A DNA stretch of 64,000 nucleotides from Promethearchaeota archaeon (GTDB taxonomy: Archaea; Asgardarchaeota; Lokiarchaeia; Sigyniarchaeales; SOKP01), in NCBI GenBank assembly GCA_048939995.1, contig JBHLOY010000012.1, forward strand, positions 16,281-80,280, read 5' to 3'. The translations under genes and the position numbers were made by a program. Positions 26,224 through 30,224 of the stretch are shown here, piece by piece (positions within the stretch are counted from its first letter, which is position 1; the number at the start of each line of letters is the position of its first letter). The notes under the pieces are model-generated. The model was not told the DNA's origin, ran no database searches, and was given only the letters and a program-made list of their open reading frames with translations.

Positions 26224-28167
26224 ATGGAAAAATCTGATACTCAACGGATTGGATACTATGCTTGTCAATGAGGAATAAATATTCGTGGAAAAGTTGATTG
26301 CAGTAAGCTAGTGGAATACGCTAAAGATATAGATGGAGTTGTTGTTTCTAAGCAACACAGCTTCCTCTGCACTGAGAGTGGACAAAACGAAATTATCGAA
26401 GATATCAAAGAAAAGAAACTTAGTTGCATTGTTGTTTCTGCTTGAACTCCACGTACTCATGAACCTGTTTATAGAGGATCGATCGCTAAAACTGATTTAA
26501 ACCCCTATTACTTTCAAATGGTAAATGTGCGTGAACATTGTTCTTGGTGCACTGAAAGTAATGAAGAGGCTTTAGAAAAAGCTAAAATTCTAGTAAAGAG
26601 TGGTATTGAACGTGGAAAGTTATTAGAAGTCGTTCCAATTAGAACTGTTCCTGTAGAGAAGGCCACTTTAGTTGTGGGTGGAGGAATAGCAGGTATGAAT
26701 GCAGCTTTGGACCTTGCAAATCAAGGAATTAAAGTATATTTAGTTGATAAAAATACAACCATTGGAGGTCGAATGGCGCAATTAGACAGAACATTTCCTA
26801 CGGACGACTGTGCTATTTGAATTTGCGGGCCTAAGATGCTTGAAGTAAATCGTAATGAAAATATTGAGATTCTTAGTTATTCAGAAGTTAAAAAAGTCGA
26901 AGGTTATGTGGGTAATTACGAAATTACTATTGAAAAGAAGCCTCGATATATAAATCCAGAAACTTGTAACGGATGTGGAGCCTGCGCAGAAGTCTGTCCA
27001 ACCTACACTACAAATTACTTTGATGAATATTTAGGAGCAAGGAAAACAATTGATATTGCTTTTGGTCAGGCAGTCCCTTTTCTATATGATGTTAATAGAG
27101 ATACTTGCGTGGAATGTTTTAATTGTGTCGATGCTTGTGAGTTAGATGCAATAGATTTCAGCCAAATACCAGAAGAAGTTAAATTTAAAGTTGGAACCAT
27201 TATCATTGCTACTGGTTGGGATATATATGAACCATACGGAGAATACGGCTATGGGGAATATGCCAATGTAATTACCCAATCTCAACTCGAGCGAATGTTG
27301 GCTCCAAATGGACCATTAGAAGGACATGTTCGAAGAATTTCCGATGATAAAAAATTGAATGAGATTGTTTTTATTCAATGTGTTGGAAGTCGAGATACTG
27401 AAAGAACTTACTGTAGCGGTGTCTGTTGCATGCTTGCTTTAAAAAATGGAAAGTTACTTAAGGAAGAATTTCCTGATGCTAATATTACTATTTGTTATAT
27501 TGACATTAGGACTAATGAGAAAGGTTTTGAAGAATATTACCAACGAGCTAAGGATTCGGATATTCGAATGATTCGTGGTAAAGTAGGTGAGATTTCAGAA
27601 GATCCAGATACAAAAAATGTTAAGATACGTGTATATTCGTCGTTAACTGATGAAATAATTAACATCGATGCCGATTTAGTGGTTTTGTCAACAGCAGCAT
27701 TACCATCTAGAGGCACTCAACAAATTGCAAAGGTTTTAAATTTAGATACTGATAAAAATGGATTTCTAACTGAATCCCACTTCGGTTTAATGCCACAAGA
27801 AACAAAAACTAAGGGTATTTTTATAGCTGGATTCGCACAAGGACCTAAAGATATCGCATATTCAGTGTCACAAGCAAGAGCAGCTGCGAGTAAAGTTGCC
27901 GAACTAACTTCTGCTGGTGAAATTGATCTCGAATTAATTGTGGCGGAAGTAGATAAAGATTTCTGCATTTCATGTAAAAGGTGTGAAAAGGAATGCCCAA
28001 AAGGTGCAATAAAGATTCTAGACAAAGAGGGAGCTGTTGTAGATGAAATTAATTGTGATGGATGTGGTATATGTGCTTCCTGCTGCCCAACTCGGGCAAT
28101 TGATATACGATATTACAGAGATTATCAGTTATATGCTGAAATTGAAGCACTACTAGGAGGAGATTAA
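26224..28167 (+). CDS. hdrA: Selenocysteine-containing heterodisulfide reductase subunit A (647 aa; Sec16, Sec74, Sec199)
   Basis: One frame from ATG 26224 to TAA 28167 with TGA at 26269 (RIGYYACQ*GINI), 26443 (VVSA*TPRTHE) and 26818 (FPTDDCAI*ICGPKM). The paralogue at 32617 has Cys at all three (ICHCGINI, VASCTPRTHE, NDCSLCILAPKM). Joins ORF-track fragments 26518-26820 and 26836-28167. Confidence 0.93.
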
Positions 28168-28171
28168 ACAA

Positions 28172-28612
28172 ATGGAGAAAAATTTTAATATATTAATGTT
28201 TGCTTGCTTAAAGTGAGGTTATAGTGCTGCTGATTTAGCTGGTGTCTCTCGTTTAAAGTATACTCCTTCAGTAAAAATCATAAAAGTTAGGTGCACTGGG
28301 CGAGTTGACTTAAAGCACATTTTATATGCTATTAAATCTGGAGCTGATGGGGTAATGATAGTTGGATGACGACCAGATGAATGTCAATTTAAGAATGGCA
28401 ATTTTAAAGCTCAAACTCATGTCGATTTAGCCAATAGAATATTAGAACGCAGAGGATTTGGAAACCAGAGAGTTAATCAATATTGGTTAAGTGGTGCTGA
28501 ATCTGAAAAATTAGTTAAAAGTGTTGAAGATACAATGGAAAAAGTGAGTCGCATGGGTAAAAATCCTATCCACGAAAAAAAAACAAAAAAAGTAAAAAGT
28601 GCAGCCTCTTAG
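28172..28612 (+). CDS. mvhD: Selenocysteine-containing MvhD/VhuD [2Fe-2S] subunit (146 aa; Sec15, Sec66)
   Basis: Absent from the ORF track. MEKNFNILMFACLK*GYSAADLAGVSR...VRCTGRVD...GADGVMIVG*RPDECQF...; TGA at 28214 and 28367 align to Cys in the paralogue at 35720 (FCCNWCSYAGADLAG; GCHIGDCHY). GGAGG SD at 28156; TAG stop. Confidence 0.93.
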
Positions 28613-28652
28613 AATGACTCTTATAAAAAAATATTCGTTATAAGATGACTAA
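28609..28652 (+). promoter_or_regulatory. SECIS element, eukaryote-like kink-turn type
   Basis: TTAG-AAT-GA-C-TCTTATAA-AAAAATATTCG-TTATAAGA-T-GA-CTAA: helix I TTAG/CTAA, 3-nt bulge, tandem G.A/A.G (ATGA at 28614-17, GA at 28647-48), perfect 8-bp helix II, A-rich apical loop. Confidence 0.85.
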
Positions 28653-28724
28653 CCATGTGTTGGTGTAGAGGTATTTTAATAGAATTAAATTTCAATTGTT
28701 AATAAATAAAATAGAAGAAAAAAT

Positions 28725-30224
28725 ATGGTACAGGTTGTGAATGAGAAATCATTCAGTGGAATTTCTCCAAAAAATTTGCTTGAAGCAACATTTAAGGCGT
28801 CCGAAAATTTCCAAATTAGAGCTTTTTATGAATCAAAAAAGGAGATATTAAACACATCCAAATATACCGAAAGTGAATTTTTTGAAATATATGATGCAAT
28901 GTTAGATGCGGAAACAGAAAGAAGGATTGTCTTAGAGAGGCTTAGAGGAAATAAACCATTATTTTTAGAAGAAATAATTAAGCTTATAAAAGAATTTCCT
29001 CCTGATAATGTTGTAAGAGATGTTATCTATTTAAAAGAACAAGGTTATATCGAGGAACAGGTCGAGATTAAAACTAAATTAGTCATAAAAAAAATAAAAG
29101 GAGAAGAAAAAGAAGTAGAAGAAAAAGAATATTTTTATAGATATCAAGTGAAAAATTTATCAGAGGATTTTGTTGAAAAATATTTTGAACCCGTTTCAAT
29201 CGTGTTTGAAGCAGAAGTATGTTGTCAATGTGGTTGGTGTTCTTCTATATGTCCAGTGAATGCAATAAGTGTGACATCAGATTTGCTTGAAATTGATGAA
29301 GACAAATGTATGAAATGTGGTTTATGTTTTTCGGTGTGTCCTCGTTCATTTTCAATTGATCAAGCCTATAAAACTATCCGGCAATTGGATAAAAAACTTA
29401 ATTGGTCAGATAAAATTGGAGGCTATTTTAATGCGTATTCGGGTTCAACAACAAAAGATGCAATAAAAAAGGTGAAACAGGATGGAGGTGTGGTAACCTC
29501 ATTATTAGAATACTTATTAGAGAATAAGTTAGTGGATGCCATAATTGCTGTCAAACATTCAAAGGATTTATGGAAACCTGAACCAGTAATCGTCGATAAT
29601 GTTAAGGATCTTTACATTACTGGTGGTACTAAATATGCAAACGCTGCTACATTATCATTCATCGAAGCAGCTAAAAATTATGAAAGAATTGCTGTCGTGG
29701 GAGTACCTTGTATGATGAAGGCAATTGAAAAAGGTATTCTCTTTCCAAGTGGACTCCCTTTCTTCAAAAATATCAAATATACAATTGGATTATTCTGCAT
29801 GGAATCCTTTCCTTATGAAGGAGTAGTACAATTAACTAAAGACAAATTTGATAAGGATATTAATGATCTAACAAAAATGAATATTGATAGTGGAAAATTC
29901 ATTATTAAATTGAAATCTGGAGAAGAATTGAGTGTAGATTTGAAAGAAATTAAATCATATGCTCGTCATAATTGTCACTATTGTGAAGATTTAACTTCAG
30001 ATTATGCTGATATTTCTGTTGGATCAATAGGTTCTCAAGGAGGTTGGTCTTCAGTTGTTACTCGATCTAAAGAAGGAGATGAGATTTATCAAGGTGCTAT
30101 AGATGCTGGATTGATTGAATCTCAAAGTTTAAAAGATGTAAAACCGGGGCTAGGACTTTTGGAACGAATTGCTGGAACAAAACGAAAAAATTGCAAATTG
30201 ATTGAACTTAAAAGGAGTGAATAA
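28725..30224 (+). CDS. FrhB/FdhB-family protein with N-terminal helical/winged-helix extension and ferredoxin domain
   Basis: CCQCGWCSSICP, CMKCGLCFSVCP, QDGGVVT, VGVPC, IGLFCME, CHYCED...ADISVGSIG. Confidence 0.88.
   Translation: MVQVVNEKSFSGISPKNLLEATFKASENFQIRAFYESKKEILNTSKYTESEFFEIYDAMLDAETERRIVLERLRGNKPLFLEEIIKLIKEFPPDNVVRDVIYLKEQGYIEEQVEIKTKLVIKKIKGEEKEVEEKEYFYRYQVKNLSEDFVEKYFEPVSIVFEAEVCCQCGWCSSICPVNAISVTSDLLEIDEDKCMKCGLCFSVCPRSFSIDQAYKTIRQLDKKLNWSDKIGGYFNAYSGSTTKDAIKKVKQDGGVVTSLLEYLLENKLVDAIIAVKHSKDLWKPEPVIVDNVKDLYITGGTKYANAATLSFIEAAKNYERIAVVGVPCMMKAIEKGILFPSGLPFFKNIKYTIGLFCMESFPYEGVVQLTKDKFDKDINDLTKMNIDSGKFIIKLKSGEELSVDLKEIKSYARHNCHYCEDLTSDYADISVGSIGSQGGWSSVVTRSKEGDEIYQGAIDAGLIESQSLKDVKPGLGLLERIAGTKRKNCKLIELKRSE

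Follow-up and report, generated by a model that had tools for sequence, protein, structure and literature searches.

A eukaryote-like SECIS element that probably serves five UGA codons in two genes of a lokiarchaeial archaeon

Introduction

How could five UGA codons in two neighbouring genes be read as selenocysteine (Sec) if only one selenocysteine insertion sequence (SECIS) stands behind them? The question arises from hdrA and mvhD (also called vhuD) in a Promethearchaeota archaeon of the Lokiarchaeia (order Sigyniarchaeales), on a 64,000-nucleotide (nt) stretch of assembly GCA_048939995.1 (contig JBHLOY010000012.1, positions 16,281 to 80,280 of the forward strand). This whole stretch is referred to below as the window, and coordinates count from its first letter. 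A first-pass annotation of the window had proposed that one SECIS of eukaryotic type, at the end of mvhD, recodes all five UGAs. Having compared the locus with its relatives, we consider it very probable that positions 28604-28672 form an Asgard, Lokiarchaeia-type SECIS resembling those of eukaryotes, and that the hdrA-mvhD pair has no other. The idea of a single element for five UGAs is supported by its uniqueness, its covariation and its strict association with UGA-containing genes.

Read with TGA as Sec, hdrA (26224-28167, on the plus strand, as are all features of the window described here) encodes 647 amino acids and ends in UAA. Its product combines Pfam Fer4 and FAD/NAD-binding domains, as in an HdrA-type flavo-iron-sulfur protein, and its in-frame UGAs lie at 26269-71, 26443-45 and 26818-20 (residues U16, U74 and U199). 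The shorter mvhD (28172-28612) encodes 146 amino acids that match Pfam FlpD (PF02662, E 2e-43), with in-frame UGAs at 28214-16 and 28367-69 (U15 and U66) and a UAG stop codon at 28610-12.

One SECIS element in the window and one per matching related locus

We searched all 64 kb of the window with two covariance models, one built on the full element and one on its core only, with filters switched off. Each gave one significant match (74.1 bits, E 1e-17 for the full-element model; 47.1 bits, E 2e-8 for the core model), and neither found a second SECIS in the window, the runners-up reaching 18 and 17 bits, respectively, at E-values of 0.1-0.2. When the full-element model was run on related loci of about 6 kb, each with a complete hdrA, it produced 79 matches in 86 sources and exactly one per matching locus: 73 in hdrA-mvhD loci, and 6 behind other selenoprotein genes of the window's own genome. 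Seven divergent loci scored below its threshold, most of which show the order AUGA, stem-loop, GA after mvhD by eye or in a pattern scan. Within the own genome, four Sec-type hdrA-mvhD pairs have one element each and ten cysteine (Cys)-type pairs have none. The same AUGA/GA element is also found behind at least eight unrelated families of UGA-containing genes and behind no Cys-type paralogue. The link to Sec insertion at the upstream UGAs, which the element would direct, is thus one of association with the Sec-type paralogue pairs.

Consensus folding was carried out by sliding RNAalifold across 11 orthologues. It detected no conserved structure after any of the hdrA UGAs (z -0.1 to +0.9), and the segment with the largest covariation term was the SECIS junction itself. 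Covariance searches and consensus folding thus both came back empty for a second SECIS in or upstream of hdrA, in agreement with the first-pass annotation. A SECIS in the 5' untranslated region (UTR), as in some methanococcal genes, was rejected, since the 400 nt upstream of hdrA hold no conserved structure (best -0.3 kcal/mol); so was a bacterial-type SECIS, since there is no local hairpin just after each UGA. At the gathering score, Rfam reported no SECIS family in the whole window.

Anatomy and covariation of the element

The 5' strand of the closing helix, GCCUCU (28604-28609), falls within the last codons of mvhD and pairs with AGAGGU at 28667-28672 (CCUCU 28605-09 with AGAGG 28667-71, plus G28604.U28672), which is followed by a run of four U (28674-77). 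The mvhD stop codon, UAG, makes the 5' strand of a 3-bp helix next to the predicted kink, with the complementary CUA at 28649-51 as its partner. A28613 and the AUGA at 28614-17, which begins 2 nt after the stop codon, together (28613-28617) supply the three bulged nucleotides A, A and U and, after them, a G and an A; from the sequence pattern, tandem sheared G.A pairs (G28616.A28648 and A28617.G28647) are predicted with the GA at 28647-48. Above the core, positions 28618-28646 comprise a non-Watson-Crick C28618.U28646, an upper helix of 8 bp (28619-26 with 28638-45) and an 11-nt A-rich apical loop, AAAAAUAUUCG (28627-37). On the 3' side, GA and CUA (28647-28651) lead into a mini-hairpin, ACCA-UGUGU-UGGU (28652-28664), in which ACCA 28652-55 pairs with UGGU 28661-64. 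RNAfold gives the window element the same three helices as proposed. The AUGA/GA core, 8-bp upper stem and A-rich loop that the first-pass annotation had described can all be read directly in the sequence at these coordinates.

For comparison we collected 80 loci by a search with an MvhD alignment, taking one genome per species; nearly all are Asgard metagenome-assembled genomes. Together with paralogues from the own genome and the window itself, these yielded 75 distinct elements. In a MAFFT alignment that had not been fitted to any structure, RNAalifold alone predicted the upper helix and the mini-hairpin, and the full structure as proposed left 85.5% of alignment cells paired. Controls in which partners were slid out of register reached 33-56%, and shuffles reached 71%, none of 500 attaining the observed value, a count that is not a probability because the sequences are related. 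Double-sided changes occur in all 23 of the 23 pairs, and the predicted structure is secured by the slid-partner controls together with the range of pair types observed.

In the alignment fitted to the model, the upper helix is paired in 99.2% of cells and all 8 of its pairs covary. The closing helix (80.6% paired) shows double-sided changes in all 7 pairs and exists in at least five compensated versions: CCGAA/UUCGG, CCUCU/AGAGG, CUCCC/GGGAG, CCCCC/GGGGG and GUGUU/AACAC. All 5 pairs of the mini-hairpin covary (80.5% paired). The UAG/CUA helix is paired in 88% of cells, keeping its G-C pair in 76 of 77 cases, its A-U pair in 61 and U-A or U-G in 53, and the UAG is retained also in sequences whose reading frame passes it by and has the UGA of AUGA as its stop codon. 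Among the 75 elements, the UGA of AUGA is invariant and its first A nearly so; in the core GA the A is invariant, and the C that follows is at least 90% conserved. Hairpin and junction are thus both conserved and strongly covarying across the 75-79 elements. This bears out a lower helix that includes the mvhD stop codon, as well as a suggestion, made at first with more reserve, that CCTCT/AGAGG and an ACCA/TGGT hairpin extend the element into a three-way junction: closing helix, UAG/CUA helix and mini-hairpin all covary.

A kink-turn is built from a canonical helix closed by a G-C pair, a 3-nt bulge, tandem sheared G.A pairs and a third pair that is not Watson-Crick. The sequence of the element can be read as this succession, with the UAG/CUA helix and its G-C closing pair, the A-A-U bulge, G.A and A.G, and then C.U, and its core may take up kink-turn geometry, here in the three-way-junction setting that is typical of a k-junction. 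In a k-junction, however, the third helix enters at the kink, whereas here the 3-bp helix would lie between kink and junction.

Coupling of the two cistrons and placement of the UGA codons

hdrA ends at 28167 and mvhD starts at 28172, so that the spacer is the 4 nt noted in the first-pass annotation, and a Shine-Dalgarno sequence for mvhD, GGAGG (28156-28160), lies within the final hdrA codons. In related loci the spacer ranges from -11 to +22 nt in 63 of 67 cases, and 54 of the 67 have a Shine-Dalgarno-like motif for mvhD. Spacer length and a Shine-Dalgarno sequence inside hdrA favour a single bicistronic mRNA that would carry both genes. The public sequencing runs that contain the stretch or part of it number 20, all of them DNA metagenomes (sediment, mangrove and soil; seven studies), with no RNA run listed.

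By alignment, all three hdrA UGAs correspond to Cys in the Cys-type paralogues of the own genome, as do both mvhD UGAs in the ten Cys-type paralogues. All five thus fall on conserved Cys positions, and neither gene has any other lesion. Across 74 related loci, the UGAs of hdrA occupy positions 16, 49, 74, 199, 301 or 591 in the numbering of the window, and every hdrA-mvhD locus that bears the element has a UGA in hdrA. The 74 hdrA genes followed by such an element stop at UAA (53) or UAG (21) and never at UGA, which is what recoding of UGA in the hdrA frame by the element would lead one to expect; in the own genome, UGA does serve as the stop codon of three hdrA genes of Cys type. Sec at position 301 occurs at seven loci of relatives (L024, L026, L030, L037, L042, L049 and L078) and Sec at position 591 at one (L070). 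Counting these two positions, HdrA has six Sec sites, compared with five in Mariotti et al. (2016; PMC4989117).

As the most likely mechanism we propose that hdrA and mvhD would be transcribed together, with mvhD translated from its own Shine-Dalgarno sequence, and that the folded element, probably by way of a SECIS-binding factor and an EFSec-like elongation factor, would bring Sec-tRNA to ribosomes paused at UGA. It would in this way serve five UGAs lying 247 to 2345 nt upstream. The closing helix, the stop-codon helix and the core all have their 5' strands within or beside the final codons of mvhD. Judging from the length of mRNA that a ribosome is known to cover, termination at mvhD should therefore unfold the element, which would then have to refold.

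Selenocysteine machinery in the genome

The genome encodes SepSecS (374 bits), an EFSec-like factor (236 bits, 5 kb away), a PSTK-like gene (161 bits) and a SelD with one in-frame UGA. No tRNA-Sec was found in the assembly (98% complete, 38 contigs) by ARAGORN or with Rfam RF01852, whose best match in the genome is a tRNA-Arg at 33.5 bits. We treat this as a gap in a metagenome-assembled genome and not as true absence.

The three-way junction in other selenoprotein genes

The generality of the element was assessed in 41 genomes with the core-only model. All 24 of the other genomes of the same genus had matches, three to nine each, and under the same, stricter filters none was found in 16 genomes from three other families of the order, three single-contig genomes among them. 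The genomes of cultured Lokiarchaeia from other families likewise had no match to the core model. The Sec trait, or at least this form of SECIS, therefore appears to be sharply bounded within the order.

For the junction, the 135 distinct SECIS elements that the core-only model retrieved from 25 genomes were folded with their flanks, only the upper helix being fixed. The genes that precede them encode MvhD (55), PrxL (15), VhuU (14), lone HdrA (7), Trx/AhpC-like proteins (5), small zinc-ribbon open reading frames (ORFs; 7), about 15 small membrane proteins that contain a GGGU motif, and others. Of the 135, 118 formed a mini-hairpin with 4 bp or more, compared with about 37 when the flanks were shuffled, and 111 formed a closing helix that encloses it (about 31 with shuffled flanks). 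The junction was found in every selenoprotein gene family of this set. We had considered that it might be a speciality of two-gene, long-range recoding, an idea that was dropped: it is equally present after VhuU, PrxL, Trx-like, small-ORF, lone hdrA and SelD genes, and is hence not specific to the two-cistron case.

The loop of the mini-hairpin contains a GC dinucleotide in 107 of 127 elements (22 in the shuffled control), and in 29 of all 135 the loop is a tetraloop of sequence GCAA or GCGA. A general GNRA tetraloop was rejected as its description, being true for just 33 of the 135, and the UGUGU loop of the window is a minor variant, neither GNRA nor GC-containing. The SelD SECIS of the own genome (L226:1290-1350, minus strand, contig C11, downstream of selD) has a type II apical build and is followed by a mini-hairpin, CCACC-CGCAA-GGUGG, like those of the other elements.

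The main texts of two earlier studies of Asgard SECIS elements (PMC4989117 and PMC11227280) make no mention of a three-way junction or a 3' mini-hairpin, and a literature search for SECIS with 'three-way junction' turned up no mention of a closing helix combined with a 3' mini-hairpin. Whether closing helix and mini-hairpin are an integral and so far undescribed module of the Asgard SECIS, the functional unit being a three-way junction and not a hairpin, is in our judgement close to an even call.

Other candidate selenoprotein genes

Small single-pass membrane proteins of 60-85 amino acids, with the motif GGGU(x)xC after the membrane helix, were each followed by a Loki-type SECIS. They were seen in many genomes of the genus (loci L093:1321-1581, plus strand, from the C36:9816 region of the own genome; L097, L101, L118, L120, L128, L137, L138, L157, L162, L163 and L172). 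They have no Pfam match, fall outside the seven Asgard selenoprotein families of PMC11227280, and may represent a new small selenoprotein family. Short UGA-containing ORFs directly upstream of a SECIS core match carry the motifs LAUGNRV (L199 and L215) or SESUxxxFCGN (L173 and L183), neither of which could be assigned to a known selenoprotein family. A conserved zinc-ribbon ORF of 36 amino acids has UGA as its stop codon, some 36 nt ahead of a complete SECIS junction, and the frame as called has no internal UGA (L092:1372-1485, plus strand, from the C17:215766 region of the own genome, and six relatives, L177, L179, L190, L192, L201 and L220).

Alternative explanations

Several observations weigh against a single SECIS that serves both genes. 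Between 25000 and 31000 Rfam matched no SECIS family at E-values up to 10 and gave only two chance matches, and the fold energy of the single sequence is no better than that of shuffled versions (-14.5 kcal/mol, z -0.92), so that the case for more than chance rests on comparison. To these points are added the missing tRNA-Sec and the fact that we infer the co-transcription of hdrA and mvhD from their arrangement. We know of no organism in which a SECIS has been shown to work at 2.3 kb and past a stop/start boundary, nor of any experimental evidence in the literature for an Asgard SECIS. Finally, more than 400 Asgard genomes contain no homologue of SBP2 (PMC11227280).

Could the element serve mvhD alone, the UGAs of hdrA being recoded by an element of another type or independently of any SECIS? 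Loki-type models and thermodynamic consensus folding would miss a signal that is small, purely sequence-based or acting in trans, and one conserved stem does exist inside hdrA (26647-26696, the strongest consensus stem there, at -12.3 kcal/mol in 11 orthologues). This stem was nonetheless rejected as a further recoding element: its covariation is close to nil (0.13), it lacks AUGA/GA, and it encodes the conserved VPV...GGGIAGM motif. With so little covariation and an overlap with the codons for the FAD-binding GGGIAGM, it probably just reflects conservation of the protein. Service to mvhD alone is also hard to reconcile with the lack of structure after any hdrA UGA, with 74 hdrA genes that never end in UGA, and with seven hdrA genes in relatives that have no mvhD behind them and carry the same element. 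These lone hdrA genes (L102, L117, L122, L131, L142, L159 and L204) are extended at the C-terminal end (...EEIKGICSTELEYKEE...), and a SECIS junction of their own follows each of them directly, from which it follows that hdrA uses such a SECIS, at the end of the unit rather than after mvhD as such. We therefore rate this alternative as improbable. Even less credible, to the point that we give it hardly any weight, is that the UGAs are pseudogene lesions or near-cognate Cys or tryptophan codons and the hairpin a terminator or stability element. The missing tRNA-Sec and the U-runs that follow the element in some orthologues would fit such an account; against it, the five UGAs sit exactly on the conserved Cys positions of otherwise intact genes and are conserved in 74 loci from many genomes, the element recurs behind unrelated UGA-containing genes and avoids Cys-type paralogues, and SepSecS, the EFSec-like factor, SelD and the PSTK-like gene are all present.

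A different question concerns the architecture of the transcript and leaves the identity of the SECIS untouched: the element may be intercistronic in a longer mRNA that runs from hdrA and mvhD into an frhB-like gene (28725-30224, 499 amino acids, Pfam FrhB_FdhB_N/C) and beyond. In most of 75 related loci an frhB-like ORF of about 500 codons follows on the same strand 42-88 nt after the core GA, leaving a gap of only about 25-55 nt after the closing helix, a tight and conserved synteny, and in the window the genes that come next on the same strand are frhB, an hdrD-like gene and a Cys-type hdrA-mvhD pair. The frhB-like gene, unlike mvhD, has no Shine-Dalgarno sequence, and the spacer before it is AT-rich and TATA-like, a combination that in many archaea marks the first, often leaderless, gene of a unit and would point to a new start of transcription. 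Runs of four to five U also follow the G-rich 3' strand of the closing helix in the window and in its closest orthologues (U5 in the latter), where strand and run could act as a terminator, and a few loci have a different gene next, or one on the opposite strand. We regard the longer transcript as quite possible, if somewhat short of an even chance. A scan for sigma-70 promoters and intrinsic terminators was set aside as uninformative for an archaeon, promoter-like sites being fewer than in shuffled sequence. Between 28725 and 36157 the window holds, on the same strand, two frhB-like genes, an hdrD-like gene with CCG domain and the Cys-type hdrA-mvhD pair, which places Sec-type and Cys-type isoforms in one cluster; no gene for a hydrogenase large subunit lies nearby.

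Comparison with known SECIS elements

A SECIS shared by hdrA and vhuD is not new. Mariotti et al. (2016; PMC4989117) described the lokiSECIS and found just one, after VhuD, in all HdrA-VhuD tandems; they considered it most likely that the two are translated from one polycistronic mRNA, in which as many as six UGAs, spread over about 2 kb, would depend on the one element. That central inference was repeated by Huang et al. (2024; PMC11227280), who described an Asgard type I eSECIS-like element from more than 400 Asgard genomes and modelled it with a generic lower stem and an internal loop. The element of the window differs from the lokiSECIS in nothing essential. It has the AUGA immediately 5' and the GA, for which the published type admits AA as well, immediately 3' of a stem of nine positions (C.U plus 8 bp), an 11-nt loop that begins with five A and ends in G (AAAAAUAUUCG), and a location overlapping the end of vhuD/mvhD; as in the lokiSECIS loci, there is one element per hdrA-vhuD pair, HdrA has several Sec residues and hdrA is never UGA-ended.

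With the eukaryotic SECIS (Rfam SECIS_1, RF00031, and relatives, read by SBP2 and eEFSec), the element shares AUGA...GA, a predicted tandem G.A and kink-turn-like quartet, unpaired A residues in the loop, a place downstream of the coding region and putative action at a distance on several UGAs. It differs in its upper helix, of 9 positions here and about 12-15 there, and is not matched by SECIS_1 to SECIS_5. It also overlaps a stop codon and follows a two-gene unit whose second cistron appears to be Shine-Dalgarno-coupled, a 3' mini-hairpin replaces the plain internal loop, and Asgard archaea have no SBP2 (PMC11227280).

The euryarchaeal SECIS (Methanococcales, Methanopyrus) resembles it in 3'-UTR location and in tolerance of distance: in Methanococcus, Peiter et al. 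(PMC9622424) found that a 3'-UTR SECIS acts over 520-679 nt with no strict distance limit and also works when directly abutting the coding region. Euryarchaeal elements have a GAA_A bulge and a G-C-rich upper stem, however, whereas the element here has a continuous A-U-rich helix with no bulge, and in euryarchaeal methanogens hdrA and vhuD each have their own SECIS. The SECIS of methanogen VhuD likewise has AUGA, together with the trinucleotide GAC/AAC and one additional short stem (PMC4989117), and its GAC/AAC corresponds to the nearly invariant C after GA here. For the kink-turn, a comparison with the thiamine pyrophosphate (TPP) riboswitch is cited in PMC11227280.

Implications

A shared SECIS of this kind bears on the origin of the eukaryotic Sec system. 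Since it was stated in 2016 and extended in 2024, the present locus is one more case. What is useful beyond that concerns structure: 135 elements from 25 genomes show a three-way junction that covaries and includes a conserved 3' mini-hairpin. Published search models for Asgard SECIS elements, being hairpins with a generic lower stem, may miss or mis-score some of them. If the junction is indeed a module of the SECIS, it would belong to all selenoprotein genes of the lineage, the type II SelD element included. It could dock the factor that stands in for SBP2 or, alternatively, act as a clamp that speeds refolding of the kink-turn whenever a terminating ribosome has unwound it. The junction also gives searches for the SECIS-binding factor, and the design of reporter constructs, something definite to aim at.

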